A stretch of DNA of 62,186 nt, counting the filler, from Sluysia triapertura (taxonomy: Eukaryota), in NCBI GenBank assembly GCA_046118255.1. It is 4 parts of 4 records of this genome, joined end to end, with 100 filler letters (N's around TTAATTAATTAA, not from the genome) between each part and the next. Parts side by side here need not be neighbours in the genome. Positions count along the whole stretch, not along the records: positions 1 to 14,640 come from JBJNIA010252747.1; 3 more parts are not named here. One strand, written 5' to 3'. The notes under the pieces are model-generated. The model searched no databases. It was not told where the DNA came from and worked only from the letters and a program-made list of their open reading frames with translations. Of this stretch, positions 1 through 36,360 are shown piece after piece. The position numbers and the translations under genes are program-made. Position 1 is the first letter of the stretch, and each line of letters opens with the position of its first letter.

Positions 1-437
1 GTCACCATCATCAACGATGACAGCCTTTTTACATTCTCATCACGCTGTCACCATTGATGATGGTTGTTAATCAGTCACCAACATTTCACCAATTTTACCT
101 ACGATCAATATATCCAATCAGAGTCAACACAGTTAGTTCATCAAGCACTGATCTGATTGGATATACTAATATTAGCTTTAAAAGTAGTCACAATTAGAAT
201 TAAATTTTGTAATATCAATTGGAGTTAAATTTTGGTAGTCACAATTTCATCTACAACTAAATTTTCAATTTTACACCTCTAAGTGGTGAGTTATTTTTGA
301 AGCAATTTCATTTACAATTTCCAATTTTACCAACTGGAGTTAAAAAGCACGATTTCATTTACGAGTAAAATTTTCATTTTATACATTCACAATTTACAAT
401 TTTACTAAATGATGATGAATTGAAGATGAAGAAACTA

Positions 438-665
438 ATGATTTCATGTAACGCAATTTTACAAGATATTGATGAATCAAAATTGAAGCAAGTAACGTTT
501 ATAAGAATCATAATGTTATAAAGTTCATAAAGCTTATGATTTCATGTAACGCAATTTTACAAAATAGTGATGAATCAAAATTAAAGCAAGTAAACGTTTA
601 TAAGAATCATGATGTAGTAAAGTTTATAAAACTAACGATTTCCTGCGACGCAATTTTACGAAATT
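438..665 (+). repeat. ~99-bp tandem repeat, ~2.3 copies (33-aa period in ORF 536-919)
   Basis: A(T/C)GATTTC(A/C)TG(T/C)(A/G)ACGCAATTTTAC recurs at 438, 536 and 635 (periods 98 and 99). Confidence 0.85.
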
Positions 666-1697
666 TCGTACAATCAAACGTTAAACATATCGAGACAAAG
701 AAACTAAACCTCACGTGGACCATTCTACTTGTCACTTCTTCAACGATATTTACAATTCTCGATCAAGAATACATCACCATTGGATCTCCTGTTCTAATTC
801 TAGTTCATCAATACTTCAAAAGCTTGGAAAACAACGTTATCCTTTCTATGATCGATATGAAATCATTTGCCCGAGCATACTTTCCTTATTCCATTTACTT
901 ATACTCAATTCTTTACTGAAATTATGATAACGCTCTCAACATTAATACTCTGCCTAAATCCAAAATTATATAACAACTTTTCATTAAATAAAATTAAACA
1001 TTCAGTAACTTATATTTTATCAACTGGTAGTGGTTTAAGTAATAAAACGTTACCAATCTTAAAAAGATGCCAAGTTAAACAACACCAAAATGTTGTAATG
1101 TCTTTTTAAATATACAATTTCAAGTGGTCCCACTGATTCTCGAAAAACAGTAGTTTGAATATATTCATTAATTATATCGTCTTTTACTGAGCTGTATTGG
1201 AAACATGAAACATTAGCCACATTATTGCTTAGTATACGAGTATAACGAATTTCAGTAATAGATCTGATATTTTTATAATAATGCACTTGCATTAAAAAAT
1301 GAGTTTGTCCTTTACTTGTCTCTAACAAATCGATACAATATATTTTCGTCGTACGAAAAAGTATTTGGAAAAATTAACAATTTGTGTTCCCTTTGGTTCT
1401 ACGTAAATTTGTTTGATTTCTTTGTTTTACAATTTCATGAACCAAGCAACAAACATAATGGACTAATCCAACTTCAAAATTTGAAAGCATTTCCAAAGAA
1501 ATAGTATCAATTCCGTATAAAATCGTCTTATCTTCGTGTAAAATCAAATTACCACTGTAAATTATCATTTTTACAGGTGTAGATGCACAACCTTGTATTG
1601 TACAACCAAAACTTTCGCCTGCTTTAATCATATCTGTTGCTGGTTGATACATCATTAATTGTGTATATTTTACGATCAGATAAATGTTTATCTCAGA

Positions 1698-2330
1698 TTA
1701 TTGAAATTGCATTGGGTTATTGGATAGTGTTTGGTCCAATAATGTAGTAGAAGTAGATACAACTGGTTGATAAGTATGTGTAAAATCAGGAGATGGTGGT
1801 GGACCTAAAGTGAGAGTAGAAAATACTGCTGGATGATGAGAATGATATGGTGCATGTTGTGAAAGAGTGTTATAGGTTGTTCGAAGTACCTGTGTTGGAT
1901 GTGTTGGTGTGGTGTAATATGTAGGAGTGCCAGTTGGTGCTTGAGGTGTTCTGGGAAGTGTATATGGCGGTGGTGCAGTTGCAGCAGAATATGTAGTAGA
2001 AGGATGCAAAAATTGATGTGCAGACTGAGAATTAACAGTTGGATTGAGAATATAAAGTGGCGGTCCAGGCGTAAATTGAGAAAGGTCAGCAGAATATGGG
2101 GTTCCGGTATGTGTAGGAAGTATCGTGTAAGAAGCTGTCATGTACACTGTATTTTGAATAGTTTGAGTTTGATTACCATCTAACATTTCTTCATGTGAAT
2201 TAGGATTTAAAGCAATAAATTCACCAATCGGTTTTAAATCTTCATACTTGATCGGTGGAAAAATGTTTGTAGAACATAAAATAGAAAAGTACAAATTTTC
2301 CGGTATCACAGTCAGATATATTGCATGGTG
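1698..2330 (-). CDS. Orphan Pro/Thr/Tyr-rich protein with PPxY motif (start uncertain)
   Basis: Long open frame, GC-richer than its flanks; contains ATAPPPY; no recognisable family. Confidence 0.5.
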   Translation of the reverse strand, partial: HHAIYLTVIPENLYFSILCSTNIFPPIKYEDLKPIGEFIALNPNSHEEMLDGNQTQTIQNTVYMTASYTILPTHTGTPYSADLSQFTPGPPLYILNPTVNSQSAHQFLHPSTTYSAATAPPPYTLPRTPQAPTGTPTYYTTPTHPTQVLRTTYNTLSQHAPYHSHHPAVFSTLTLGPPPSPDFTHTYQPVVSTSTTLLDQTLSNNPMQFQ

Positions 2331-3058
2331 TAAAAAAAAGAAAGAAAGATTGATAATAAAATGAACGAAAGAAATAGTAGGAATAGGAAATAATAATAAT
2401 AATGATAACAATTATGTGGTTATTATGTTTATTAATACAGAATTGTTGAAATTTATTATGAAATTTTATCATGAAAATTATTATAAAAGTTATTATTTGG
2501 TATTTATATTATATAACAATAATGACTATAATTATTACACATATTTTAATATGATCTGAATCGTAATAATAATAGCGATAGTTCAGGATAATTAGATGTG
2601 ATGGTCATGTTTGTTTTTGAATAAGTTTAGTAGTTTATTTAATAATCTGTGTATATGTGAAGTGTTTTGTGTGATGTAGTGTGATGGAATTAGTGTGAAG
2701 AATTCCCTACATGAAATGATAAAGAAAATATAAAGATTAGTTTATTAAAATTATCGTTAGTTTAGTATATATTTATTTGATTTATTATTATTTATTACTT
2801 ATATATTTTAGGAAAAATAAGTTAAAAAATGAAAATTGAATTAATTATGTTTTTCTTTAAAAATGAATTTACTACAGTGTTCTTTCTATATAAACCCGCC
2901 TTTTTATATAGACGTCATATTTGTCTGCGACATCGATTATGATTCTGGAATTTTGATAACCCAAGAGGATAATCAAGAGGTGGTATATTAATTGAATGTT
3001 TATTATTTCGTTGTTTAATATACTCTGGCTGGGTTATTACTACTTCCTGAATTTCAAT

Positions 3059-3301
3059 TCATTGATTAATAAGATCTAATGGGATTTTCTCCAAGATATA
3101 ATAATGCCTAAATTTACCCTTACAAAAAACGTGAATTTCCTCTATGGCCGTTCGACATAATGGACAACTCATGTATTCCGTGAATGAAAAATGGAAAAGA
3201 TTAATAATACATTTAAAGTGAAATTTATGTAAACATGGATGTGTCTTTGTATAATGCTTATGTATGGAGCATTGACAAATTGAACACCGAATAAAATACA
3301 T
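3059..3301 (-). CDS. Small intronless RING-H2 finger protein (possibly truncated by a premature TGA)
   Basis: CSIC...PCLHKFHFKC...CPLCR fits C3H2C3 spacing; the frame stays coding-like after the TGA at 3059-3061. Confidence 0.7.
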   Translation of the reverse strand: MYFIRCSICQCSIHKHYTKTHPCLHKFHFKCIINLFHFSFTEYMSCPLCRTAIEEIHVFCKGKFRHYYILEKIPLDLINQ

Positions 3302-3994
3302 TACTGAAATTTAGGAAGAAAAAATAAAAATATAAGAAGATAATAATATTTTTAAATTAATTAAATGGTTAATTAAAATACTGTAGTTATAGTTCTAATT
3401 ATGTACATTACGAAAAATATTTGAACAATAATTTTTTAAAGTTAGGTGACCAGCCGGACAGTACACAACCGTCAACGTCGGTCACTCGGTTAACTCTATA
3501 CTTTAATTATGGGTGTCATTCTACGAAATGATCCTAAATACATTTTTATGGCTTCAGTCGTAAGACTGACTGCAAGCAAAGCATAAATGATGCACAAATG
3601 AATGTTGATTTAAAATTCTTTAATGTCATTATTGTGTTTGTAGATTTTAAGGTTAATTAAGCTGATTTTAGTAGATTTATTTGGTATTTTAATTGTTTTT
3701 TCAGTTATCGCTTATTTAATTACAGTATTCTTATTTAATTTATTACTTATAGTTTACTTAATGATGGATATAACTAGATTATATGGTCGTGTGATTGATC
3801 AGTCATTCGCTTTTAGTGATTCATTAGCATTAAGTATCCACGCGTATATAATTGAAAAGGTTGACACAGGATAATAATTTAACAGGGTAGTATGTTTCGG
3901 TGGAATTAATTCTGAAATAGTTTCTTTATCAGTTGCATATCTTATTATAATCGAATTATTTACTAGGGGATTAGTTACCTTAATTAAATCGATT

Positions 3995-5830
3995 TCAGTG
4001 ATTAACGCCGTTCAACCATTGTTTACTGAATTTATCGTAGAATACACAAGGCATTGTTTTAATCCAGTAATATTGTGTATGTATTACTCGATTTGTTAAT
4101 TCCATCGTTATTTTTACTTGATATAATTGAGATTCAAATAAATCTTCACAAGTTACTACCCAATATATTGAAGCTTTAATTAGTGTTGAAGAAGTAGTAC
4201 AGAATTGATTGAAGCAACAATTGATAGATAAACGAACTAACTTCTCGTCCATTTGCTTAGCTACAACTACTATTACGTCGGTCTTGGCTTGAATAGTTAT
4301 TTGTATATTATTGTAGAACAATTTCTTACTTAACTTATTTATGGTTATATCAAATGAATCAATAGTTGTTATTAAACAAATACAGAGTAATACCGATGAT
4401 ATTTGAAATCCATTATAATATGTAGGTAGTCTTAAGTCTGTATTGTATTCATATATTGGTGACGGCATTATTGGTGGTGGTCCTGGAGGAGGGACAAAAT
4501 TTATTATATCTTGGGATTGAATAGAGGTTATCACCGTCATTATCAGGATTAGTGTATTTACATTTATTCATAATGAACATCATTAACAAGGTTATTATCA
4601 ATGCAATAAGAAATAATGTAGCTGCTATTGCTAAAATAACTATTGCCGGATCTTTTTTTAATGTATCTATAATTGTAGTTGGTTCTCTGATTCCTTACAT
4701 AGCAAAATGAAGTTGTTTAACAATTTTTGCTTGATGTTGGATAAATATTACTATGTCTGTCTTCCGATAGTAAATAATCTTTACAGATTGTTACTGGATA
4801 CTCTGCGTTGGGTAGAACATGTATGTGTAGTTCCCATATACTGAAATTAAGTCTTGCTGGATTGATACATATGTAATTTGTTTTAATATTTCTAGTTACC
4901 TTAATTTGCACTTCTGTATCAAAGTTATAAAAATCCAAATATTTTGATTTGTAAATTCTCTATGACGCGTCCGTAATTGATAATAAGGTTAGTAAGGTAA
5001 GTAACATCATGCTTGGTTTTCTATTATTTACTCTTATAATTCTATTACAAGTGATTAATTAGTAAATAGTAAACAGCATATAAATCAGGGTAAAGATTAA
5101 GAGTGCAACTTTAAAAATATTTTGTATTTCAAACTTATTTTTCTTAATTATATTCTTACTTATTTCCGTGGTAATATTCATAAACCTATTCGTTGTAGTT
5201 GCTAATAGTGTACTTACTGTTTTATCTATAACTTTCTTCTTAAAAATGTCCATGAAGTCTATTGTTACTGACTTATTATAAAGTGTAAACGCCATTATTG
5301 TGGTATATTGAATTGAGTGCTCGTATTTGAAGATATCATCTATCATAGAGGGTTTCTTTATTATTATTGGCTCAAAATATATGCATTATATATCGAAGCT
5401 ATAATCAGGAATTTCGTTTCTGTTATCAATTTCAGCAGTCCAAAATCTATTGAAAGTATCTGATAGAAAGACGTTCTGTTTAGTATTGGTATAACTTGTT
5501 AAATTTGCTGGATAATTCGTCATCATAGTTGTTAATTGAAATAAAATAGCATAAAAGTTATTATATAAAAATATCTATTATTTGGAATTGCTCTTATAAA
5601 CATTATACTGCTATCACTGTTGCTAATACTAGTATTATCAGTAGTATTATTATCATTATTATTATCTGATCCGATACCTGAGGTTGAAGAAACTGTGGTA
5701 TCCCACCAATCGAGATTTTCCAAATTTGGAGTTGGTGATGGTGGTAATATTGGATTTAATGGAGCAATTGTACTGGCGGAACTGCTCTTGGCATTGGTTA
5801 TACTACTAATTGTGGTTATACTACATGTGT
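3995..5830 (-). pseudogene. Tandem decayed ORFs for signal-peptide/TM membrane proteins of unknown family
   Basis: S/T/P-rich stretch 5830-5600; TM-like VALLIFTLIYMLFTIY; signal-like MMLLTLLTLLSITDA at ~5010; TM AIVILAIAATLFLIALIITLLMMFIM at ~4650-4570; scattered stops and frameshifts. Confidence 0.45.
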
Positions 5831-5899
5831 ACCTAGAGGTATTTTAAGAAATCCTAGTCTTCCGTGTATTACTATATTTTCTAATTTGCTTAATACATC

Positions 5900-7997
5900 C
5901 ATTTCACATCTAAGACTGTCAACTGACATCTTCTCGTTGATGTTTTATTATTTCTTTTGGATCTTCTAGCTTTCCCGAGATTGACATTATTTGTATAAAA
6001 TTTACATTTCCTTGCTCATCGATATTTGTTAATCTGGACATACAATCGGCACCGTTCTTCATTGACCCTGTTTGTATATTATTTGTAGATCAAATTCTGC
6101 AGTTTTGTAAACCATCTATTTAATCTACTTACTTCATCTCTGTGATTTATAGGTATGTTAATGGTTTATGATCCGTATACAGTAATATTTTCTGTCCTAG
6201 TAAATAGTGTCTGAATAGTTTACACGCATATACAATTGCTAAACATTCCTTTTCTATTGTAGAATAATTTAATTCAGCTTTATTTAATCTTCTACTTGCA
6301 TAAGCTATAACACCTTCTAGGTTTTCTTTATTTCTCTGTCCCAGAATTGCTCCTATTGCAAAGTTGCTAGCATCTGTTGTTAGTATAAATGGTTTGCTCA
6401 TATCTGGGAACATTAGTATTGGGACATTTGTTAATCATTTCTTTAATTCAATAAACGCTTTTGTTTGTTCTTTCGTCCACTTGAATATTGTGTTCTTTTA
6501 TATGAGCATTCTTAATGGTCTAGCTATTTTCGCAAAATCTTTTACGAATCTTTCTTTACATTATCTGGTGGTGGAAATTTCACAACTTTTTCTATATTTT
6601 TTGGATTTGGTTTTATACCTTTATGTGAAACTATGTGTCTCAAAAATTCAACTTGTTCTTCTGACCATACACATTTAGTCGGTTTAATTTTTAATCTTGA
6701 GTGTGTTATCTATATCTACACCACATGAGTATCAAAATCTTTTGAAAATACCATAAATGTAAACCATAACATTCTTACAACCGGGAAACACGAAATTCAT
6801 ACATTTTTGGAATGTCATCCGAATGGCATCTTTTCACATTCATATAGTTCGTCTCCACATGAGAATACTGTTTTATGTTTATCTTTTTCAGCTATTTCTA
6901 CTTGCCAATAACCACTTTACAAATCTAATGTAGTAAAGTATTTAGCGTTGCCTAATTTATCTAACATTTCATCAATTCTTGGTAGTGGGAATACATCCTT
7001 TCTCGTTATTTTATTTAATTCTCTAAAGTCAATACAAAATCTCATAGTTCCATCTTTTTTCTTGGTCTGATAACTCCAGCCTTTTTCATAATATCTATTT
7101 GGTCTTTCATTTCTTGTTGCTTACATAATGGAATTCTGTATGGTTTCTTTCTAATTACTTTATCTTCTATTAACGGAATTTCATGTTTTATTATAACGGA
7201 ATCTCCGATATCATATTTATTTCTTGCAATTGCCCATGGATATCTATGGATAACTTTATATAATGTTTCTTTTTGTTGTTTAGTTAAATTCTTATTCTTT
7301 ATTTGTATTTCTTCGTAATCTTCTTCATCTTCAATATTTTTTGGTAGTTTTATGTTCTTATTTCTTGGTTTATCATCTGATACCATTTTTATTTGTGTTT
7401 TTAATTTATAATTAACTATTTCTCCTAGTTTTGTACCTGTGTATAACCATTTATTTTCATCAGTATAATTTATTATTCTTATTGGTATATTCCCGTCGTT
7501 AATTCTACATATTGAATCAGCAATACCTATGTTTAATTTCTCTTGATTATTTTTTGAAGCTATAAACATTATTGGACCATTTCTTAAACTATTTGTTCTT
7601 CTTAAACTATACATTCTGTCATTTCTAATATAACATCATCGTCATCCATTGGTCTTTCCGTATACGTATCCATTAATCTTGCTTTACTGAAGTCTGATGA
7701 AACTCCTTTTAATTGTGATAGTACATTCATTACTCTACGTTTTATTTCCATTTTGTTCTGGCCAATTTCGCATAATATCTTTAGCACTCCTAAAATTTCA
7801 ATTTCATCTCCAGTTACTCCTGTTAAATATGAATGTTGTTTAGCTAAATTGTTTAATTTTTTAGTAGTTAATAATGATTCGCTTATTAATGAGGCAACTG
7901 CTCCTGTATCAACTAATGCAGATAACATTCTATAATTAACTCTCATATCTATCATGGGTCTTCTTGCACTGTTATAGTTATTATTAGCGCATATCAT
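5900..7997 (-). pseudogene. pol: Gypsy pol (aspartic protease, RT, RNase H), frameshifted and partly deleted
   Basis: ALVDTGA; KPYRIP; [47 protein letters not shown] (7060-6815); FILTTDAS, YASRRL, NYSTIEKECLAIV, TDHKPL, ADCMSR. The YxDD region is degraded. Confidence 0.95.
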
Positions 7998-8109
7998 GTA
8001 AACTAGATTTCTTGGAGGTGGTTGATATAAACTTTGTTTTTCTTCGTTGACTGGTTCGATATCTATTGTCTGTAATGCGATTTCCTCAGTTTTTTTTCTC
8101 TTTCTTTAA

Positions 8110-9889
8110 AGCGTTTAATTGAGCATGAGCGTGATGATGTAACATAAACTTAGCAACCGATTATTAACTTCCATGTAAAACCTGATATTCTGTATATACC
8201 TACAACTAAAATATTTCAGAGATTATAAAAGCAATAACTTTAATTATTACATATATACCTATTAAAACAGAAAAAGCTCGACATATAACTAAGAAGTTTG
8301 CCCAAATTTGTTTTAAAGTGTTTTGTGCTGCTTTCCTAATAGTAATTCAAAGTTTATTTTACCATCTTTTTCAACTCTTGATTTATCAACTATATCAGTA
8401 AGTACTTTAGATCTTTTAATAGGAAATAGTATCTCATGCCAAGCCTCTTGATTATCTTCATTTGAATAGATTCCAGATCTTGGAATGTTCTTTGTAGCTG
8501 AGAATTTTAATTTTGTTTTTAATTCTGTTAAACCTATAATTTCCAAAGATTGTCATCAATTTTATATTCTGGAGCCATTACATTAGAGCAGTGTAGAGTT
8601 TTTGGTTTAAGTTTATTAGTTGGCATAATAATTCTAGTGACTGGTTCTAAATAAGTATTTTGATTTTTGTAGATTACTAGTAATTCATTAGTACATTCGC
8701 TCTCTTGTCTTATTTGTACTTCTACCTTTCAACATTTATATGTATATGAAACTTCACCCATTAGCCTACCAAATACTCCTTCTTCTAATGGAAGTAATGG
8801 TGCTACTAAGTCTGGGTTGGTTATTGCTACTGCTAGTTTAGTACTTAATATTTCCTTGTTTAATTGGAAATCTCTAGCTATCATAGCTTGATAAACTTTT
8901 TCTAGTGACATAAGTCCTAAATGATAATAAAAATCGATTTTATTATTAAAATATATTTAATTGTAAATTATTTGTATCTATTCCTTTTTTGGCTTGTAGT
9001 ATTGTCTTTTCTGATAAATATATTCCTTGATAGTTTGTTTCTGTGATTTCTTGTCCGCATCTAATTACTAGTTTCTTTGATACAAATATTAATTCATCTT
9101 CTTTATTCACCATTAAAATTGTTGGAGTTTCGATTTCATGAAGTCTTCCTTTCACTTATATCTAAATTATCCTTATAAATTTGTTTTTTATTTATTTCTT
9201 CTGCAGCTAATTCACCCTCATTTTGATACATAAATCCTGAGATTAGATTAAACTTAATTTATTTTAGGAATATTAGTGGACATTGGAAATTTTCCAATTC
9301 ATATATAGTATAGATTCTCCAGTATCACAACTTGTTTGATCACTTCTACAAAATGGTCTAGACATCATAGTACCTTTTTCTAAATTAAAACTTTCGTTAA
9401 AAGATTTTAGACTTACTACATACGTTTCTTGAGCTAATACATTGTGATAAATCTTCCTTTCGTATTTTATTGATCATCTTTCACAAGTACCATCAATTAA
9501 TACATTACCAGTTATCTAATATTGTAAATTATTTTTTCATTATTTTTAATTCTTAATTTACCTCCTTTATTTAAACTCCTCCTTTATTTATATATCAAGT
9601 TTCAAATGCATCTCGACAATTGTTTGGTGATATTTTAAAAGGTTTTAATATATTCGACATATCAATAATTGACAAGTGACTGTGGTGTTGTAACCAAATT
9701 TCCTACTTGGTAAACATTTAATACTTTCATATCTTTTATTTTGACTCTATTTGGTCTTGATTGAGGACAATCTTCAGTGTCCAATAAAGAAAACTTTCTT
9801 CCGATTTGAGGTTGGTTACAATCAAAAGCTTTTATAGCATTTGTTTTAAGAATTCCAAATAATGCCAATAAAACAATTATAAATAACAT
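8110..9889 (-). pseudogene. Env-like glycoprotein resembling chuvirus (Jingchuvirales) G
   Basis: Signal peptide MLFIIVLLALFGILKTNA then IKAFDC...FSLLDTEDC; LAVAITNPDL...GEVSYTYKC..VEVQIRQESECTNEL...YLEPVTRII...CSNVMAPEY; C-terminal TM SVLIGIYVIIKVIAFII...GIYRISGFTWKL. These match the recalled chuvirus-G motif pattern; many frameshifts. Confidence 0.75.
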
Positions 9890-9999
9890 ATTATTTATTG
9901 AAGTTCCAAATTGCGGGAATGATCCATTCGTATTAATTAGTCTGGATATCATGTTAAGTGGTTTGCTTAAAGTATTATAATCTTCCTTTTCTTTATCTT

Positions 10000-10350
10000 T
10001 GACTTTTACAATATTTTTTCATCCTCCTAATTGTTCAATTAGAGTACCTAGTTTCTTATCGGTAAAATTTATAACCTTATCTATTTTTTCTTGAGTTAAG
10101 AGCGCAGCTTTATTGCATTGAAATATTATGTAAGCCATTATTATTTTAAGTCCATCTCTATTAATTCCAGCGTTAATTTGTTTATTGATTATGTTTTTAT
10201 ATTGACCATTGTTTATGAAGTCACTTATGTCTGTATTCTTATATCTTTCCTCCATAACTTTAATTATCTTAGATAATGCAATTCTTTTAATTCAGGTAAA
10301 AGTTAGAGAATTTACTATATAATAGTGCGCAAATTATAGTTTTAGTACTT
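10000..10350 (-). pseudogene. Bcl-2-like domain inside the retroelement polyprotein
   Basis: BH4-like STKTIICALLYSKF, BH3-like IALSKIIKVMEERY, BH1-like YKNIINKQINAGINRDGLKIIMAY, BH2-like KLGTLIEQLGG*KNIV (TGA where TGG Trp is expected); in frame with the glycoprotein signal peptide. Confidence 0.55.
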
Positions 10351-11899
10351 AAAGTTTCTTCTATATTCTTATAAGTAATTTTTGTTAAATCAAAAGGTTT
10401 TCTATGTATTGGTGTTGGTATTATTGTTTCGTCATCATTATCTTTAATTTTTTTGGTCTACCTGGTTTTCTTTTAAAAGTATTTGTTTCTTTATCTTCAG
10501 TTTCAATATGTGGATTTTAATTTAAATCTATTATGTAATCGGGTTTATCTTCTGTGTAATCATCATTGTCATTGGTAATATCTATAATTTTACTTTCATT
10601 ATGGTTATCTTTATTATTACTATTATTATTTTCCTTATAACTGTCTTCCATTAATTCTCTTAGTGTTGAACATGGGGTTCTATATAAATCAACATCATTG
10701 TCATCATTGATTAGTTCCTTTAATTTTCTTAAATCATCGGAAGGCTTAGTATATGCCGTTATAACTGCGGAAGTCATTGATGCTTCCTCATGGTTTCCAT
10801 TCATTGATGATAACCCTAATCATTTATATAACAATTTTCTATCATAAAAATATAAATCAACATCAGTAATATTAGAGTCATTTGACTTGAGTAATTCTAT
10901 AATATCTTTAGCAATTGAAGTAGGAGAAGTTCCATAGTAATATTCAAAATAATAATTATACTTATTTTCATTAATTACTTCTTTCTTTTTGTCCTATTTT
11001 CCTTAATAATTTTCTTGCATTAGTCTTATATAAACTATCTTCTTTACTTTAAATAGCTAATACTAATTTAATATCGTGTCATTCTGTAAACTTAATTCTG
11101 AATTCAACAAATCATTTAAATTTTCATTTAAGTCTTTGCTATACGTCATATTAGATAAAAATTCTTCAACTTTTCGATCAATTTCCTTGATTTTAGTTTC
11201 TGGGGTATTTATCTTCTCATTAGCTGCTATTATTATTGATTCCGTCTCTTCTGTTTCCATCTCTTCTGTGGCACTGTAATAGGCATCTTCTTCATCTATT
11301 TCCATTTCTTCTGCTTGTATTTCTTCATCATCTGTTTCTTTATTGTTAATGATGTATCTGTTTCTACTTCTTGATCATCACTTAGTTCTGCATTATTTTG
11401 TTGATTTTCTTCTTGCTTAATTTCTTTATCTGTTGGAATTGATTCTGTATTTGATTCTTCTTCTATTTCATCATTACTTTCTTTTGATTCAGTATCTATT
11501 TCTTTATCAATTATCTTATTTGATTCCGGTTTCCTCGTTTTTCCTTCCCATTTGTCAATTAATTCTTGAATTATTTTTCTTTTATCTTCATTTGAAATAA
11601 CTATTTTATCTCTTTTATTTGTTCAATACTTTCTTCTAAAGGTTGATTTAATAATTCACGAATTCTAACCTAAATTGGTTGAATTATTAATCGATTTTCT
11701 TCTTTTTCTCGTTGTTCCCTTCTTTGTTTATCCTTTTGAAATTCCAGGTATCTATCATGCATGTAACTCATAAAGATTTATTCTTCTTGTTTTTTCTTAA
11801 ATCTATTCTTAATCCACTAATATAGAATTCCCGCAGCATTGCATTCTTTTCTTCATCTGATATTAACTTAAGATATTTATCATCTTCTTCATCACTTCT

Positions 11900-13041
11900 C
11901 ATTTCTCTTCTTCTTGGTTGCCTTCTGCTTCTATTTCTTGCTTCTTTATACTGATGTTCTTCGTCTTCATATTCATTTCTATAATCTTTTTGACTTTTAT
12001 GCTTACAATTTACCTGTCCCTTATTATTCTTATTGTTACTATTATCATTAAACCTTACCTTCCTATTCGGGCTTTGGTATCGTCCCCTAACCTTATTAAA
12101 ATCCTGAGTAAATACATTTTGTCTTAACTTCCTACAATCTCTTGCATAATTCCCCTTTTTATTACATTTGTCACAGATTAATTCTCCATCTATATTAGTT
12201 TGAGTCTTATTATTATTTTCATATCTTATTGGACTCTTACTTCTATTCCTATTAAAATTAGAGCTTGGTGTCCATCTCGGTGCTGGTCTTTGTTCATAAT
12301 TAAAAGTACCATAATTACTTGTTCTTTTATTCTGTAATTATTATCTCTAAAATTATTTCTGAAATTATTCGAGTTATCACTGCCTCTACTTTGGCTACTA
12401 CATCGTTCATAATTGTAATTACTGTCATTATATTCTTCATAATTCTGGGAATTACATTTATTATTATCATAATTTCTTGTTAATTTTGGGCTTTCATCTC
12501 CTTTTTCTTCATTATCGCTTATATAATCAACATCATTATTATTCTTTTTATACTTAATTGAGCGTTCTATACTTCTTAGTTCCTTATTTACTTCTTTAAA
12601 GGGTTTTCCTTCTATTAAGATAACATTTGTTATTAATTCAGGTCGTAATCCAGTTTTTAATTTGCCTATTAATGTTATTTCTTTTTTATCTTCAGGGATT
12701 TTGGCTCTAGCAACAAGTCTTTTAAGAGCACAAGCATATTCATATACAGATTCATTTGGTTTTTGTATACTGGTATTTAGCATTTTAGCATAATATTTAC
12801 CCATGTAATCAAGAGCTATTTCTTCTATAAATGCATGAACAAATTCATTCCATGTTTGTTTATTATTATTGCTTATTTCTTTATAAGTCTGGATAGCCAC
12901 TCCAGTTAGATAATTTTGGATCCGTTTTATTTTTTCGGCTTCATTCCAGCCGTTTGTTTCTGCTATGCTTTCATATTCAAATAAGAAATCGCAGAGATAT
13001 TCCTCTGCTCCGTCAAATTTGTTCATTTCAGGTAAAGACAT
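11900..13041 (-). pseudogene. gag: Gypsy gag with degenerate zinc knuckle
   Basis: FDG..FLFEYESIAETNGW..YLTGVAIQ..QKPNESVYEY..GLRPEL; CDKCNKKGNYARDC at 12175-12134 (CX2CX4[H>N]X4C); R/S-rich tail. Confidence 0.9.
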
Positions 13042-13371
13042 TATTGGAATGAAAAAATATTCTCTGGCATTTCTCTGGCTAAATGTACCATATATTCCTT
13101 AAATTCATTAGGTAAAACCCTATAATTCCTTAATTTTGATCTGTAATCTTCAAAAAGTACAATTTTCTTATCTATTACTTACTTAATCTATTAATAATCT
13201 TATTCTTAACGAAATCTTGATACGATTATTCTAAAAATTCTTAAATCTTAATATTAATTCTCAAATTCTTCTTTAATTAATCTTTAAATTCTTCTTAAAT
13301 ACTTAATTCTTATGTCAATACTCCTCCAAAATCTTCTTAATTACTTAATCTTTATATTTATTTCAATACTG

Positions 13372-13390
13372 CTCCTCATTCTGGGCACCA
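13372..13390 (-). promoter_or_regulatory. Primer-binding site, elongator tRNA-Met-like
   Basis: TGGTGCCCAGAATGAGGAG resembles the reverse complement of the animal tRNA-Met(e) 3' end (TGGTGCCCCGTGTGAGG); ~350 nt upstream of gag and 10 nt after a candidate LTR end ...TTCCACA (13401). Confidence 0.6.
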
Positions 13391-14486
13391 GATTATTCTA
13401 TGTGGAAAATTTACTTAGAATAAAAGGAAGTACTTATTGTGAATTCACCAAGGTACTAGACCAGCAGTTGGATTTTGGTAAATTAAAAGAAAGTCTCAAA
13501 AACCTTTAGCTATCTGTAGACAAATGAAATTTATTTACAAGAATTAATACTAATAATCGAATTTATAAAAAGATTTTTCGTTGATTCCTCTGTATGGAAT
13601 TTTTAAAAGTTATTTTGCGTACCTAGAGGTAAATTCTAGCAGTTGAAGCATAAAGGACGACGGATTTTATGGTTGAAGCTATAATATAATTTATTCTTGA
13701 AAATTTTGTATAGCAATACAATAATAATATAAATGTCTAATTTATGTAAATTAACTGTATAAGTTAATTTCCCATTAAGAAATTTTAAAAATAATATTTT
13801 GCGTATAGATCTTTGAAAATATCCAACAGTTAAATAAAAGAATTTAAGTAAGATTTTTCGTATGATACTATATTTACCTTAAAAATAATTAAACTAACGT
13901 GGTTTAGAATAAGTTTTTAATCGTCTAATAATCTTCAAGTCGTATCGATCTGCCAAAATCTACTAAATTCGAGATTGCGTCTCTGAAAGAGTTGTAATTG
14001 AAAAATTATATTTTTAAAAAGTGTGACCGAATTGAAACAAAATTTTATAAACAACGTTAATTAGCTATAAAGTGTGGAGGGCGACACCAATCTGTACTTT
14101 TTAATTTTACGTGGCTTTACTTTAGTTGAACGAAACTTAATTAAAACCAAATTTTTTTTATCTATTTTGTTAATATTTACGAAAATGAGCTTAAGGCTCA
14201 GATTTATTAGAAATAAACAAATAATTAGAGTATATAACAACATAACAAGATCAAACAACTTGATGTTATTTACAAAAAAATATATTAAAAATAATTCATT
14301 TAAATATAAAATAAACAATGAACGAATAGAATTATCAACATTTAACATATCATGTATACCTTGGATAACATAGTCTATGAGTTCTTCTTTTTCTCCTTTA
14401 TCTCCATCGTTCAGACTTCCATCGAAAGAATCATCAGCCATGGTTAAAACGACGTCGTAAAATACCCATTTTAAAATTCTCATAAA

Positions 14487-14640
14487 ATAAAATGTTAAAT
14501 AGACGAGGAAAACACCAAATGTAATTGATAATTGATGATGTGCTGTAATTGTACAACCAATTGACGTTGGAGAAATTTCTGCCAAAAATACTGGTGCTAT
14601 AATAATCATCATCGCAGTATTTAAACATAATATAGAACGA
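14487..14640 (-). pseudogene. MFS sugar-transporter (GLUT-like) fragment
   Basis: APVFLAEISPTSIGCTITAHHQLSITFGVFL resembles the sugar-porter motif PxYxxEIsP..RG....QL.I..G; cut by the contig end. Confidence 0.6.
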
Positions 14641-14740
14641 NNNNNNNNNNNNNNNNNNNNNNNNNNNNNNNNNNNNNNNNNNNNTTAATTAATTAANNNN
14701 NNNNNNNNNNNNNNNNNNNNNNNNNNNNNNNNNNNNNNNN
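14641..14740. other. Artificial contig-joining spacer N44-TTAATTAATTAA-N44 (also 37286-37385 and 50371-50470)
   Basis: Identical 100-nt design with stops in all six frames; 21708-21851 is an ordinary N gap. Confidence 0.95.
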
Positions 14741-14767
14741 GTATGAAAAAGTTGATTTTATATTTAC

Positions 14768-16271: not shown

Positions 16272-19200
16272 ATGCATTTTTTTAAAACTTCAAAGCCAAA
16301 ACATGAAGAAGTGTTTAAAAATGTAACAGAACGTCTCAACAGTTTGTATAATAATAAATTACTATCTCTGGAAAAGCAGTATAAATTTCACGAATTTCAT
16401 TCATCATCATTAGAAAGTGGTGATTTTGAATGTAAACCAATGGTTCTATTATTGGGTCAATATTCAACTGGAAAAACTACATTTATTCGTTACCTTCTGG
16501 AACAAGACTTTCCAGGTATTCGTATTGGGCCAGAGCCAACTACAGATAAATTTATAGCAATTATGTATGACGAAAAAAGTGGAGTAGTACCTGGAAATGC
16601 TTTAGTAGTAGATCCCAAAAAACCATTTAGACCATTATCAAAATTTGGAAATAATTTTCTTAATAGGTTTATTTTGGAAATTTATAAATATTTTCTTTTA
16701 GATTTCAGTGTTCGTTATTAAATAATCCAGTACTTAAATCTGTAACAATTATAGACACTCCAGGTATTTTAAGTGGTGAAAAACAACGATTAGACCGTGG
16801 TTATAATTTTCCGGAAGTTGTTGAATGGTTTGCCGAACGTGTTGATAGAATTATTTTATTATTCGATGCGCATAAATTGGATATATCAGATGAATTTAGA
16901 CGTGTTATTGAAATGCTAAAGGTAATTTAATTCGTCATTTGTTTTTTTATTAAATAATCATTAAATTAATGAAATAATTCCTATATTGATGTGTTTTTGG
17001 ATACAAAGTACATTCTTCGACAAAATTTGAAACACAATTATGTGTGTTGCGAAAAATGTTTGTAGGATATTTGAAATTTTATAAAAAAGTAAATTTATGT
17101 AAATTAATTGCGTAAGTCAAGTTTTTTTCATTTTGTGCATTAAAATGATTTGTTTTTAATATTAATATTTTATTTAAATGAGTGATTGTAAGAGAATTCG
17201 ATAACATTCATTATAAAAGGCGCTAAATTTGATTTATATATATAAAGTACATTTATACTAAGTAAATATATTAAGTATATTTAAACATTAATCCATTTAG
17301 TTAAGTGTTTTATAAATAAAAACTAATGTTAAATTATTTTTTAATCGTTCATAATCTTAAATAAGAAGAATTACGTTTAATATCAGGGTTGGCCAAGCTC
17401 CTCGATAGTCCGAGCCATTTTTCAAATTTTGAAATTTTTCGCAATTAAATACGCATTAAAAAGGTACGCAAAAAGGTATTAAAACATTTTTTCCGACAGA
17501 AATGAAATTTGTTACAACGTCTTTCAGATTTGTCAGAATTTAAAGGACATTTTGAAACACATAGTAACACAAAAATGAAAAGAAAAGTCGGGTAAATTTA
17601 TCGAGAGAGCCACAAATAATCTTTCAAAGAGCCGCAGTTTGTCAACCCTGTCTTAGGATTTATCGATCAATTAAATAAATTATGAAAAAAACAATTTAAA
17701 TTAAATAAAATAACCTCAAAATAAAAATACCGTTTAAAAAATTGGAAAATTTAGAAATGTAAACTCCGAAAACACAAACAACGATCAAACTACTATCCAT
17801 AAGGCATCCATTATTATTACACCGAGCACAAGAAAAGTTAATGTCTCAGTTGATGACATAGGGAAAGAATAATCCAAAAAACACTTGAAGAATATTCTAC
17901 TAAGTCAATCAGTGTAATGTGTGGTAGACCATGCAAAACAGTTAATGCAATAGTACAAAGATATTTAAACCGGGAAAACGTGGAGGTGATAGAAGATCTA
18001 AACTTACGCTCGAAGTGAAAGAGCAAATATTAACAAAAGTGGATCAAGAGTGTACATTGACACTAAAAAATCTAGAACTATATGTGTCTGAAACGTTTGG
18101 TATCAATGTATCTTTGAATACTCAAGAGTAGTTCCAGAAACAATCGAATAGAGGATGTTATATTCGATTTAGTAGGAATAAATCGAAAAATTTAGTTTCA
18201 TATTTTAAGTTGATTGTAATTGATTGCAAAGTTTATTTAATTGATCGATTGCATTTAAATATTACGTAATATAAATGATAGAGGAGTAACGAATTTTGTT
18301 TTCAAAATGTGACAAAATATCTCAGTAATTTCTGAAAAAATGTCACTATTTTCTTGCCGTAGTTTTCAAATTATCAATATCTATGTTGTTCATGTTTTTT
18401 CTTTTTTCTGGTGGATTGGAACCATAAAGCTCAGAAATGACTTATTATTATTTTCTATTATATTATTATTTAATATTATTTTCTATCGGACATGACTTTC
18501 GTTCCAAACATATAGTATAAAACGATGTAATAATAGACTGTACAAGGGTCCATTGTAATTTTAAAGAAATGGTAGGCTCCTAATGATTTTGTTTTAAATT
18601 TTGTATTATTACTTTATGTGAAAAATATTTAAAATAATCAATTCTTATTCATCTTAGATTTATTTGTAAACTTTTAGAAAACCTTCATGATATCAAATAC
18701 CATTAGTAAAGTGTTGTAGTCCATGAAATGAGGAAATTTATCTCGTTTCTATTATTAAAGAGGTTGTTTAACGTCTCATTCTACTATACGAAAACACATT
18801 TGTTTAAGGTCTATGAAAAACTTAATAACTGTGTTACAAGGTCATGTTTGATTGGTTAACAAAGAAAATTTTATTTTAAGTAATTAATATTTAAGTTTCG
18901 AATGTTACCGAAAATATCTTCGGTAAAAACAATTTCAAATATTAAAAGATATGGTGGCATTAGTTCTGAACTCGTCTTTGTTGGTAGAAATTGAAATTGA
19001 AATTGAAATTTTAACAGTTAGAATAAGTCAGTCTCAAATCTATATACTCAGAAATAAATTAAACATTTGACAGACAGAATATAAACAAATAAATCAAATC
19101 GAATAAATACTACATTTATACCTTATTTCGCAAGTTTTTTCTGATTATTTTAGGTTGTAATTTAGTTATTGTACTTTATATTAAAGTTATTTTGAGATGT

Positions 19201-22200
19201 CAGCATAATTCCAATTTATTTTTCACAGACATACTATGACCAATACATTTTTCGATTTCATTCTATATATGGTAACTGTTCTATAGTTAAAATCATACAA
19301 TATGATAATATAGCCAATTTCTTCTATTTGTTAATTTTTGTTTATTCTTCATATACATTCAATTTGTAATTATGTTTTGGTTTGTATTCGTTTTATCGTT
19401 CTCAAAATGCATCTTTTTATGACAAGCTTTTCGAACTTTAGATTTCTTCATTTCAAAAAATTTATAATCAGAAATTATGTAATAGTGTCACATAATTTCG
19501 TTGTTTATATATATTATTCTTCCTTGTTCACAACTACTCAATTTCCACGACATAATATCTTCTCTACAATAATGAAAATAATAATGATCTCTGTAATGGA
19601 AAATTGTCTTTGAATAAAATATGCACACGACAAATACCCACAGACAATTGCTCACATGGAAAAGTTGTATTTCAAACAAAATGCATCGATTATTCGACAA
19701 AAAATTATAAAAGTTTCAAAAATAATCTATTGTAGTATGAAGACGAATTAAATTGAAATATTTTTACTGAATATAATATGTAATTCTTCATAATAATTTG
19801 CTCTTAATTAATCGATGTGGTACAAGATACGTACAGGATTCGTACTTGTAATAAATTATTTTAAAAGTAAATATAAATTAAAAACAAAATATATATGTTA
19901 TATATCTAAACAAAATAAAAAATAATTGTAAGTTATTATTATTATTGTAAATTAGTCATTTTTCGCAAATATCGCATTTTATTTTCTATATTATCATAAT
20001 TTTCGACGTGAGGGGTCACAACCGAATGCGAACATTCGCAAATGTTAGGGTATGGCAAGCCAAATATTTTTTAATTCGTCAAGAGGACGACTACCATGAA
20101 ATAATGAATTTAAAACATTGTACATCTCTCACTGCCACTTGTTGTTTGGGATGGCTTTGATTCCAAATTTGATTAGGAATAGAAGACTTCTTCATGTTAG
20201 TACTTCATTGAAACTTTTTTCATCGGGAAATGCAGTTGATGGTTGATCAAAAACTCGAAGTACACTAACTGGTGGAACAAAAGGCAATGCTGCAAGAAAT
20301 TTTAATTTTAATTGCGTATCAATGCTACTTTCGAATTGTATTTTTTAAACAAACGCTAGGCAATACAATCCTAGTCAGTGTTTTGAGGTGATAGATTAAG
20401 AATTAAAAGCTTTAAGATGTAAAAACATTCGTGAATATGTTTATCTTTCGTGATAAAAATTACGTACATGATGGATAAACATTGCCGAATGATCATCTAT
20501 TTAAAATTGATTATAATTGATTATAATTTGATTATAAACAAATCTGTATCAAAATAAAAATCAGATAAAAAGGAATAATAATAAAAGTTAGTATACCTTT
20601 ATATTTGCTGGATAAGAGAATAACTTACGAAATGTAATTGTATCGATCAGTGCATTGAATTGAATTCGAAATTCGTAATTTATGTTTGAAGACATTATTG
20701 AATGAGCATCATGACCTCTAAATTACTCACAAACCAATGACAAGATTATATACTCATCATTTTGTCCAACAATGAAGAATTTATCACTAAGATTGATAAT
20801 GTATTATCAGATTGGCCTTTAGTTATATGATTAAACATATAACGGCGATTATACTTATAACTAATAATAAAATGAATTTTCAGGTACGCTTTTAAATCGT
20901 GTACTTCATCATCATTATGATCAACATTCATGGAATCAGCAATTGAAACGCTGTTATAGTGGAGTATTTATTATTTCTATTATCGGTAAGACCTACTGTG
21001 GGGATTGAATCGTATATTGATAATCGATTGTGACGGTGCGTAACGCACTTGGAGAAATAAGAGCTCTTGGTAGCAGTAGTTAAATCATGATCGGTATCTG
21101 AATTATTAACGAGATTACCGTGCGTGTTTGACATCTTTTCCACCGAATGTTGTGATTATAAGGTAAGAAGCGTGATCTTGTAAGTGCTTGAACAATTCAA
21201 ATCATAATATCTAATTAATGTTGTAGTATTACTTGGAACTTCTGTCTCTAATCTTCAACAGATTTTGTATCTAATGATTGACAGAAACGGGAACTTTTAT
21301 TATCACTTAGTTCAGAAATAAACATTGCATCTTTAACTTAATTAGTTTGGTAAAAATGATTTTTATTGATAATAGAATATTATAACTAAAATTGCGGTCA
21401 AATATCGCGATTAAATTTATGTAAAAATTGAAACTGCATGTTGTGATTAAAAATGTTGTGGTTAAGAATATTGTGCCAATTAATTTTGCTAACTTTATGT
21501 AACCAACTGTTTTGTTGCTAGCACCAATCAATATAAAATTTTTATGAATGAAAAGTGGTCAAGTAATGACAGGAATTAAATTAAATAGATAATAAAAACT
21601 GTGAAAATTGACAGTGCAATAATTAAATGATAAAAATAATAATTAAAATAGTGATAATCATAATAATGATAATAATAAAAATGTAATAATAATCATAATG
21701 AAAATGTNNNNNNNNNNNNNNNNNNNNNNNNNNNNNNNNNNNNNNNNNNNNNNNNNNNNNNNNNNNNNNNNNNNNNNNNNNNNNNNNNNNNNNNNNNNNN
21801 NNNNNNNNNNNNNNNNNNNNNNNNNNNNNNNNNNNNNNNNNNNNNNNNNNNNGCTAATAATAAAATAAATATTAAAATAAAAATAAAAGTACGCATACAT
21901 ATTTGTCTTGTAACATATCAATTTCTTAAAAGAAAGCTTGTTGTGGTTGTTTTCTCCAACAACTTCATCTATAACAAGTAAATGACATCCTTCATCTGAT
22001 GTGCGATATGTGCTTCTCTTTAACTTCTTCATTTTGCATTCTTTTCTGATGCATGTCTCAGATGCATGTGGAAAACTTCCTTTTAGATCTCTAATGACAT
22101 TTTCTTGAAACAGATTTAAGTGAATTGGAAACAGTGATAATCGATGTGGTGGACTAAGTGTGATTCTGGAAGACGATGTATTATTCTTTGGCAAAAGCCA

Positions 22201-25200
22201 ACCATCCGAATTAGTATGTTGGCATGAGTTTTTATCGAGAGGTTCGTTTTGAATGACAAATATTACATAATGATAGAAGAAAGAAAGATAAAAATAAAAA
22301 AGTTATGAAAGAGAGTTGGGAGATAATTAATGAAATTAAAGGTGTTAAGAGAAATTCCCTTTCGTATATTGTTATTTTGAAATTAAAATTACAAATTTGA
22401 TGATTTTTGATGTAATGAATGCTTTAGATGTTGTAAAAGTATGATTTTTAGTGTAGTGTGGTGTATTAAAATTTTGTGTGAAGAAGATGGCCACCACAGA
22501 GGACGCTTTTTCTAAGATTGATTCTTCAGCTCTCAATTTCACATTGTCATGCAACCTCTCCACAACCTGCAGTAATCCCCAGCTCGGGTTCCGCTTGAAT
22601 TCATTTATATCTTGTTTAAAATCTGATATTTCGATCAAATAATCGATTTGTTTGCTTGCATATTACGAACTGTAACTTCATGCAAATCTTCGTTACCAAC
22701 TATCATTGTTTTGAATACATTATTGTCAGCATTTTTTGCTGTTCTAACAAGTTTTTAAAATTATTTAATATTTTTTGTTTTAAAAAAAGTGAAAATCAAA
22801 ATAAAATTAAAAAAAATAATACTTATAATAATAACAAAAACATGTAATATAATATAATATAATTAGTATTAAGATTACTGCTAAGGTTAGTTGTAGTAGT
22901 GGTAGTATTACATGCATGAGACAATTGAAACACTTTGTACTAAAGTACAATAATAGTGAGATGATGGAAATGACATTGTCTTTTAGTGATAATGATGATG
23001 AAAACTGGGATTGTGGTAAAATAAAACTTATTTAATTTATTTTGATGTAATAAAATGATAATGCGTATGGATGGATGAAAACAAAATTACCAGAGATACT
23101 GGGACACATCAATCCCTCTGTGAGAAGCGGAGCTGGTCTAATGTTGTGACCCAGTATTAGGAATAAGAGTTCCATTTTTGCGTGATACAGGAGGTTGATT
23201 TATTTGGTTCTTTTTGATGATTTCAGTTTTGATACACCAGTTGATATCAACGATGGCTGTATTGTTTACGGGGTTGAATTTTTTTAACTCGATATGATCC
23301 GGTATTCCTTGGCTGTAAATGAAGTTCGCTTTTCAATGGATGCCCAAACGAATGGGCTCTCATGAATAAGAAAGTAATTTTCCCTCTGAGCTTTAATTAA
23401 CTACTTTTGAATCAAAAAATAAATCTTACAACCTGTTCTAAGCTAAAATTTGAATTTATTTATTTTCAAAATTCAAAGAGCAACTTGTTGGAGTTGTCTG
23501 AAATCAGATCGTCATTTACACAATGTGTTTTCGGTTCTTTTATGTTCAAAATCGACCTAGTTCACTTTCTATCATAATTAACCGATTATCATGTATAATT
23601 TTTAAAACAATATTATATTACTTATTGTTGTCATATCTAGAGATTTGAAACTAATGTATGACTTATCTTCAAATATAAAGCTAATTTTAAAAATGAAACA
23701 GTATTTTTACACCTTAAATATTCAAAATTTTAATAAATATTGAAGAATGTGTAATATATATATCAAAAATATTATTGTTATTTATTTCAACGGTACAATC
23801 CATTATATTATATAAGTTAATTTTAATTTTTTTATTTATTGATTTCTTGTTTATTATGTTTCTAATAGAGGACTTTATTATTATTGTATGTTATTATTAA
23901 TGTTATCATCATTAATCATATGTTATAACACGATCGCAATTTTCTTGGTTTTTAAACAAATTTTACATGATTATGACGACTGTCCAATCACAGTGTGTTT
24001 TTTTAAACTTCACTAAAAATATAATTTTTATACAAAGTGCCAAATATTTAAACAAAAATAGTAAAAAGATAAAAATTACAAAAATCATATTAATTCGTTC
24101 TGAAACTCCAATTTAATATAATGATAAAAAGATATAATGCGAAGAGTTTAAAGGTGCTTCTCGGAATGGTGTTGATGAGAATGAGGGAGACAATTGCTAA
24201 TGATTTTATTGTAAGTTTTAAGATGAGATGATGAAGTGTAGAATGAATTTTATGTAAATTTATGAGTTTGGGTGATAGGAAAAGTACCAAAACTAAATAC
24301 TATTATTACAATTCAGGGTTACGAAGAGAAAATTCGTATTGTTCTTAACAAATCTGATATGGTTGATAGTCAGCAATTGATGCGTGTCTACGGAGCACTG
24401 ATGTGGAGTCTGGGAAGAGTACTTTATACACCAGAAGTTGCTCGTGTTTTTATTGGCTCATTCTGGGACCAAACGTTACATTACGATACAAATCGAAAAT
24501 TGTTTGAATTGGAAGAAAAAGATTTATTTGATGATTTACAAGAATTACCGCGCAATTCTGCTCTAAGGAAATTGAATGATTTAATACGTCGAGCTCGTCT
24601 GGCAAAGGTAAATTAGATATAATTTCAAAATTTTCAATTTATTGATTTTCTGTAAGATCAGTTTATCGATTACACTTAGGGGCAGTTTTGAAAAGTATTA
24701 TGGAAAATAAACATTTACGAATAAACATTTTATCCGAATTCCTTATTCGGATCTTTTCCATTGTAGTTTTTCAATGATAAATACATTTTAAAAATAGACA
24801 ACTGGCTTCATATCCTTCATATCATTTAATCACGAGTTTGAGTGATAGGAATGGAATGTTATTAACCCGAGTCTTATTTTGATAGGATATTAATATGATT
24901 GTGACTTGTGCAATAATTGATAATGCATTTCATTCTTGTTATATATTTATAGAAACATTATTGATGCAAATTAAAATCGCTTTCCATAATTTCCTGAATA
25001 TTCGAATATATTAGACAAAAATCTTTATAAATTTTATAACTTTTACAAATCTTGAGAGTAATTCATTATCGATCTTTCTCGAATATGATTATGATTCGAA
25101 TTTTATTTTATTTTATTTTATTTCCATTGAATCATCCTCTACAGGTCCTATTTAATTTCAGCGAAAACACAAAATTTTCACAAAATTAAACGCCTGACTC

Positions 25201-34396: not shown

Positions 34397-34553
34397 TGTT
34401 GGGGTAAAAAGGCCTAAGATGCCATTTGGTAAAATTGACAATAATAAAATAAAACTGTTAGACGGGGCTGACAGCTCAGTGGTAGAGCAATCGAACTGTG
34501 CAGCGGTGATCCCGGGTTCGATCCCCGGTCAGTCAATTATACGAAGTCTAACA
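34397..34553 (+). mobile_element. Solo-LTR-like short element with tRNA-derived core, copy 1
   Basis: TGTTGGGGTAAAAAGGCCTA...GAAGTCTAACA; TSD AAAA; internal box A/B. Confidence 0.75.
34465..34536 (+). pseudogene. tRNA-derived sequence (Ala/Cys-like arms, defective anticodon arm)
   Basis: Acceptor GGGCTGA/TCAGTCA, D arm GCTC-AGTGGTA-GAGC, T arm CCGGG-TTCGATC-CCCGG; anticodon stem is not canonical. Confidence 0.75.
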
Positions 34554-36220: not shown

Positions 36221-36360
36221 TGTTGGGGTAAAAGGCCTATAAAGTGCCAAGTAGTATAATTGAATATATTGAAAATGAAAAACTTAGACGGGGCTGATAG
36301 CTCAGTGGTAGAGCATTCCCGGGTTCGATCCCCGGTCAGTCCATTTTATGAAGTCTAACA
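36221..36360 (+). mobile_element. Same element, copy 2 (anticodon arm deleted)
   Basis: Same termini; TSD ATAT; D arm joined directly to T arm. Confidence 0.8.

Follow-up and report, generated by a model that had tools for sequence, protein, structure and literature searches.

A sequence resembling a chuvirus glycoprotein lies within a Gypsy retroelement, upstream of pol, in the 62,186-nucleotide stretch of Sluysia triapertura DNA (the window) analyzed here. The locus raises the question of whether a retrotransposon has recently taken up a viral gene, in an unusual arrangement, or whether the glycoprotein is a long-standing component of the element. The analyses described here indicated that the locus is very probably the decayed remnant, lacking integrase, of a Ty3/gypsy (Metaviridae) element with the gag-env-pol layout of flatworm elements, resembling the planarian element Burro but more compact.

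RESULTS

All of the glycoprotein motifs cited in the first-pass annotation were recovered by six-frame translation of the minus strand between ~8100 and 9900, where env coding sequence runs from a Met codon at 9889 to ~8100 and is scattered across three frames. This env remnant (8098..9898), of the chuvirus/Monjiviricetes type, consists of a hydrophobic leader beginning at Met 9889 (9833-9889), an ectodomain and a transmembrane (TM) segment within 8209-8328 (mean hydropathy, 2.67); it contains AFDC at 9829, SLLDTEDC, GEVSYTYKC at ~8758, YLEPVTRII at ~8653 and GFTW at ~8182. A Pfam scan was performed on 21 pieces of the element region, 6 of them single-frame pieces of env. Five of these six matched PF24664 (Monjiviricetes_fusion), collinear with their genome order and covering profile positions 3-51, 144-209, 310-443, 462-510 and 534-571 of 653, in agreement with the chuvirus-type assignment for which a profile search had been proposed as a check. 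The largest piece (8537-8956) was the only one above the curated cut-off (82.9 bits versus 27; E = 1.8e-23); the other four matching pieces fell below it, yet were collinear. The piece at 8955-9140 had no Pfam match.

The Pfam scan revealed the order gag, env, protease, reverse transcriptase (RT) and RNase H on the minus strand, with gag to RNase H spanning ~7 to 7.5 kb. A primer-binding-site-like motif, starting with TGG and unique in the window, is located upstream of gag on this strand (13372..13390). The gag capsid open reading frame (ORF) (12226..13098) matched PF03732 (E = 1.1e-6) and PF19259 (E = 0.002) and, by tblastn, the gag of protein P0015 (E = 1e-19). It is followed, in a different frame, by a degenerate zinc knuckle (12134..12175) that could be aligned to the P0015 CCHC knuckle but was without a Pfam match. 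Directly after the env tail is an aspartic protease (7602..8105; PF00077, E = 9e-7), with its DTG near 7906, and then a spacer domain (7066..7593) that had no Pfam match, is 27 to 30% identical to that of metagenome loci L001 and L002 and occupies the position of a dUTPase-like annotation in Burro. The RT is broken (6554..7063; PF00078, E = 2e-13), with 70% identity to L001 and L002 over 81 amino acids (aa), and its catalytic YxDD motif is not intact. RNase H and the connection domain (5970..6551) matched PF17919 (E = 1e-38) and PF17917 (E = 1e-35). In a tblastn search with L002, similarity stopped near 5970, short of the integrase core, and no match to an integrase core was detected within the window. 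The order of gag, protease, RT and RNase H, with integrase following RNase H in the closest intact relatives, is that of Ty3/gypsy elements (Metaviridae), while BEL/Pao-type Pfam families (Pao gag or protease, DUF5641) were absent from the 21 element pieces and from L001, L002 and L004. No chuvirus L or N gene was present in the ORFs scanned. Because env and protease share a frame at their junction in the relatives, the idea of a programmed -1 frameshift at this point was abandoned.

Neither a pair of long terminal repeats (LTRs) nor a target-site duplication was found in the window, and a self-BLAST of 13391-14620 gave just short, chance-level matches. The 3′ end of the element may have been deleted or may lie beyond the window. 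ORF pieces on the same strand (1059..5843), some with hydrophobic segments, are possibly a 3′ membrane-protein tail of the element or accessory genes. These pieces had no notable Pfam match and no significant match to the tails of P0003, P0007 or P0016; 20 of 21 comparisons with relatives' tails were at chance level, and the remaining match (z = 3.5; 1 of 300 shuffles) was not taken as evidence. A profile of the relatives' post-integrase repeats gave a weak best score of 1.3 bits at 4103-4171 (null, -2.1). Elsewhere in the window, on the opposite strand, a 126-nucleotide (nt) fragment (55118-55241) is 76% identical to gag 12830-12954 and represents another, more ancient remnant of a related element.

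A database search with the largest env piece detected one longer protein, P0002 (60% identity), and residues 1-761 of P0002 were then used as a query. A total of 1,452 proteins matched at E ≤ 0.001, and the best 150 of these were listed. Element polyproteins were at the top of the 150, while most of the others were chu-like proteins of ~650 aa with 21 to 29% identity; the best-scoring envs among the matches listed were element-borne and 39 to 45% identical to P0002. Twelve of the matches listed were at least 1,100 aa long, with env and protease in one chain in 10, gag and env in 1 and env only in 1. In P0145 (1,000 aa), a Monjiviricetes-type glycoprotein is preceded by immunoglobulin domains in a single fused chain. 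P0007 (HBK71150.1), a retroelement polyprotein of this family with env and pol, is deposited as a protein of a Flavobacteriaceae bacterium metagenome-assembled genome; the record probably reflects animal DNA assigned to a bacterial genome during binning.

The fold was examined with P0004, a relative with 53% identity across the largest env piece, rather than with the broken window copy. A model of P0004 based on a 115-row alignment had a pLDDT of 84.6. Against the PDB, herpesvirus gB was found in every row listed (best E = 6.1e-13); against BFVD, mononegavirus-type glycoproteins were matched, chu-like ones among them (best E = 9.1e-43, for that of Tacheng tick virus 4). Both the fold and a cysteine-rich motif pattern are common to this env family, the G proteins of Jingchuvirales (Chuviridae) and gB, but the top viral matches had only 17 to 22% identity. 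The matches of this model to gB and chu-like G indicated that the glycoprotein belongs, on its predicted fold, to the class III fusogens; a host protein as best match, the outcome that had been named as contrary to the first-pass annotation, was not obtained. While the gB-like fold is that of P0004, the hydrophobic segments corresponding to a signal and a C-terminal TM are present in the window copy itself. The proposal of a chuvirus-type (gB-like, class III) glycoprotein within a Gypsy element of gag-env-pol order was, therefore, upheld by the Pfam order and by the structural matches of P0004.

A metagenome scan detected five related loci (L001 to L005), whereas none was present in the viral contigs scanned. 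A single ORF of 3,703 aa runs from gag through env to integrase in L002, one of 2,693 aa from gag to integrase in L004 and one of at least 3,426 aa from env to integrase in L001; L003 has a stop before env, and L005 is without a long ORF. Two to four tandem aspartic proteases are present in one chain between env and RT in P0002, P0003, P0005, P0006, L001 and L002, compared with one protease domain in the window copy. In the intact single-ORF relatives of L001 (positions 2-12107) and L002 (positions 97-13473), the ORF closes with a post-integrase segment encoding a leader, short repeats, a Ser/Thr-rich stalk, a TM and a Pro-rich tail, and a similar membrane module also occurs between two protease domains of L001. 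A separate DEDDh exonuclease ORF is located downstream in both loci (PF00929, E = 1e-5 and 1e-3, respectively).

The frame of the env leader runs upstream, across one stop (10019-10021), into a segment (9995..10387, minus strand; with another stop further upstream) resembling the pre-env segments of the relatives. Pfam Bcl-2 matches to the latter were all below the cut-off (P0004, E = 0.001; P0015, E = 0.055; P0002, E = 0.2), but a profile built from three of the relatives' segments had nothing other than Bcl-2-family chains among its best 60 PDB matches (BAK, E = 0.0019; Bcl-xL, E = 0.002). A profile from seven relatives scored 9.5 bits at 9995-10387, the exact place and frame expected, with the next-best place at -0.6 and a reversed-frame null at -0.4. 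The window piece resembled that of P0015 (z = 7.1; 0 of 1,000 shuffles) and P0004 (4 of 1,000 shuffles), while for P0002 and P0011, the other two of the four relatives compared, it was no better than shuffles. Alignment of L001 to the window was unbroken from 10192 through env. These comparisons suggested that the pre-env segment of the window copy is likely to be Bcl-2-like. We consider it unlikely that the element, although a gypsy of gag-env-pol order from this broad flatworm clade, is unrelated to Burro and has a pre-env segment that is not Bcl-2-like. Such an interpretation would account for the lack of a Pfam Bcl-2 match to the window piece alone, for the lack, by eye, of such a segment in five close relatives (P0003, P0005, P0006, P0007 and P0008) and for an AlphaFold model of the domain, made with a 3-row alignment only, with a pLDDT of 46 and no meaningful structural match (best Z, 5.3); it is opposed by the placement of the seven-relative profile score, the similarity to P0015, the continuity of the L001 alignment and the PDB matches of the relatives' profile. 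ESM Atlas searches gave no usable match, and a region search for further ubiquitin- or Bcl-2-like relatives returned the query alone. Weak Pfam matches to ubiquitin/SUMO-like domains were obtained for P0015, L002 and L003. A ubiquitin-like domain at ~10730-10990 of the window looked plausible by eye but failed on testing (z = 0.5 to 2.3), with no match anywhere in the window to a seven-relative profile.

In a tree of 122 env sequences, constructed with a single-frame piece, the window env nested among polyprotein-borne envs, within clades of 11 (support, 0.92) and 22 (support, 0.925) whose inner nodes were weak. Relatives were ranked identically by RT and env: L001, L002, P0003 and P0007 had RT identities of 67 to 70% and env identities of 51 to 58%, followed by L004, P0016 and P0018 (49 to 54% and 34 to 36%, respectively), and the env of P0128, a pol-env element, was 29% identical. 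This concordance argues for inheritance of env with the element and against fresh acquisition from a chuvirus. The term capture in the first-pass annotation was not supported where it would mean recent acquisition from a chuvirus, the closest envs being element-borne, and the phylogeny that it had proposed against element-borne copies placed the window env among these. A recent insertion of chuvirus G cDNA into an ordinary gypsy element of the host (a nonretroviral endogenous viral element [EVE] in a transposon) would be in keeping with chu-like glycoproteins as the best viral structural matches and with the frequent flanking of chuvirus G EVEs by gypsy fragments described in the available text of PMC10084718. 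This explanation is already largely refuted, and we regard it as very improbable: the best-scoring envs listed are element-borne, most ~650-aa chu-like proteins being far less similar to P0002, the window env lies inside polyprotein-borne clades, RT and env rank the relatives alike, and env has the same position in intact single-ORF relatives.

Frameshift-tolerant alignment of env with three relatives (37 to 42% identity) detected 9 to 11 frameshifts, the count varying with the relative, and 4 in-frame stops. Relative to P0002 (42% identity; 569 codons), breaks are located near 9700, 9596, 9515, 9310, 9145, 8955, 8535, 8337, 8207 and 8155 and stops near 9590, 9474, 9259 and 8729. The distance from the env start to the first protease is 641 codons in the window copy versus 684 to 915 in seven relatives. 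The env of this copy is a pseudogene, from which no functional protein is made; this state and the upstream Bcl-2-like segment were both absent from the first-pass annotation. An intact and active element in which errors of sequencing or assembly account for the breaks is highly improbable, since, while many are frame changes inside A/T-rich sequence, five exons (~490 codons) of the window's host EHD gene are unbroken compared with ~14 lesions in ~600 env codons, making decay likelier, and the in-frame stops, damaged RT motif and absent integrase core are atypical of indel errors.

This EHD/RME-1 gene (16272-31853, plus strand) has at least six exons, multi-kb introns and a first intron of only 35 nt (16667-16701). 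Very short introns are a feature of parasitic flatworms. In a FastTree phylogeny of 33 proteins (32 drawn from 120 matches; 447 columns), the host gene grouped with one further protein (0.986) and both grouped with two trematodes (0.998), the host lying outside the two trematodes. As these two were the only named flatworms, and there were no other named spiralians, the placement stops at a flatworm, probably not a trematode. The window also contains an exon of an intron-containing CCDC81-like gene (37760-38164, minus strand; PF18289, E = 3e-16). Nested long inverted repeats at 43132-46451 and 47900-48691, with arms of 72 to 159 nt, 83 to 90% identity and a common center, are foldback or MITE-like DNA elements. 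Two tRNA-derived SINE-like copies (34446-34566 and 36272-36373), one internally deleted, have A and B boxes, and no tRNA was called in them by ARAGORN. ORF pieces at 49630-51611 (minus strand), 160 and 214 aa long, were without Pfam matches, and the sequence at 50147-50219 recurs at 61930-62002. Stretches of N with the TTAATTAATTAA spacer at 14622-14741, 37285-37385 and 50370-50470 are not biological.

DISCUSSION

Glycoproteins of this type had been described in the first-pass annotation as known mainly from BEL-Pao elements, with a Gypsy host and a gag-env-pol order being unusual, a view mirroring PMC10084718, in whose available text no clear Gypsy capture had been found. This view is not supported by the accessible portions of two other reports. 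PMC13524379 describes 114 arthropod gypsy elements with a Chuviridae-like glycoprotein and, from Nematoda, Bryozoa and Platyhelminthes, GAG-ENV-POL gypsy elements whose env is of the gB type, including nine flatworm elements; in its table, none of four Monogenea-labelled genomes has an ENV-POL env count above 0. PMC6431247 describes planarian Burro, in which an in-frame env lies between gag and pol. The architecture itself is, therefore, already in print. Anakin-type BEL/Pao elements of mosquitoes (PMC7642597, as cited in PMC10084718 and PMC13524379) carry the same glycoprotein Pfam family but are described with a BEL/Pao pol and with env after integrase, unlike the gypsy-type pol and env before protease of the window copy. 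The BEL/Pao arrangement is exemplified in our searches by P0039, in which DUF5641 precedes env.

One of the closest published parallels is Burro/GYPSM1 of Dugesiidae, known here by description (PMC6431247; Grohme 2018 and Jurka 2007, as cited there). According to the available text, its order is Gag, Bcl-2-like domain, mononegavirus-like Env, protease and RT, and, as in the window copy, there is a Gag CCHC knuckle, env lies between gag and pol, and protease, spacer and RT-RNase H follow in that order. Env of Burro, like the window env family, matches mononegavirus fusion glycoproteins; it was, however, tied to gypsy/baculovirus F by HHpred, whereas the relatives examined here have a predicted class III, gB-type fold. 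Decayed Burro copies are reported in Dugesia japonica, and the window copy is likewise decayed. The BCL2-like domain directly before env appears, indirectly through relatives, to be shared, and a single ORF was seen in intact relatives, reaching from gag to integrase in L002 and L004 and from env to integrase in L001. Burro has an ORF1 of 4,873 to 5,140 aa, exceeds 30 kb and carries BIR, ankyrin and MATH domains, whereas the window copy is much shorter, has one knuckle, preserves neither LTRs nor an integrase core and was without a detected BIR, ankyrin, MATH, SMC-like or ubiquitin-like domain. Because the giant size and extra domains were not found, the element is termed Burro-like rather than Burro. 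Within the openly accessible literature searched, PMC6431247 was the only description of a Bcl-2-bearing env element.

A second parallel is provided by the Platyhelminthes_C1a "ancient errantiviruses" of PMC13524379, which, in the parts available, combine a Ty3/gypsy pol, a gB-type env like Chuviridae G, a gag-env-pol order and a flatworm host. That survey covered intact copies only, whereas the window copy is broken. The PFC..C.TGES and CG..TNY.GIY.S motifs of the window env match six Schmidtea rows of Platyhelminthes_C1a and not the nematode rows shown in the supplement (by eye, unscored). The accessible main text contains none of the words "Burro," "Bcl," "fused" and "polyprotein"; we infer that its Schmidtea elements may be Burro-like single-ORF elements. 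The Burro-like reading is preferred because of the Pfam order and collinearity, the fold of P0004, the single-ORF relatives and the Bcl-2-like segment, together with the same domain order in Burro, the grouping of EHD with trematodes, the Schmidtea motifs and the concordant RT and env rankings.

By analogy, the element would have worked in the manner of Burro and of the gag-env-pol errantiviruses of flatworms. Intact members would express one ORF as Gag, a ubiquitin-like domain, in some a Bcl-2-like domain, class III Env, one or more proteases, RT, RNase H and integrase; for the compact relatives, a single ORF implies that Gag, Env and Pol would be equimolar and the polyprotein processed by signal peptidase. 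Judging from the layout of the intact relatives and from signal-peptide topology in general, the internal hydrophobic leader would thread Env into the lumen of the endoplasmic reticulum, signal peptidase would cut Env from the upstream Gag/Bcl-2-like part, leaving the latter on the cytosolic face, and the Env TM would bring the chain back to the cytosolic side for release of Pol by the element protease. A trimeric Env, if active in fusion, could let the element pass from cell to cell in enveloped form, and host apoptosis could be modulated by the Bcl-2-like domain. Cellular Bcl-2 proteins are tail-anchored; hence, the Env leader might remain as a tail anchor of the Bcl-2-like domain.

A more extended proposal is possible but doubtful: that the host is a non-dugesiid flatworm; that its element belongs to a wider, compact, Burro-related clade with L001 to L003, P0002, P0004, P0011 and P0015; that these elements are single-ORF and enveloped, with the Env leader anchoring a Bcl-2 mimic; and that they encode a post-integrase repeat type I membrane protein and a DEDDh exonuclease.

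As a dead copy of an architecture already published, this single locus carries little weight. Its value is modest and lies in joining the literature on the Burro Bcl-2-env polyprotein with that on gB-type gag-env-pol errantiviruses and in pointing to a class III, and not an F-like, env for this clade. If the extended proposal is true, a retrotransposon lineage present across the flatworms would carry a viral-style modulator of apoptosis, and the small intact members would be easier to study than the 30-kb Burro.
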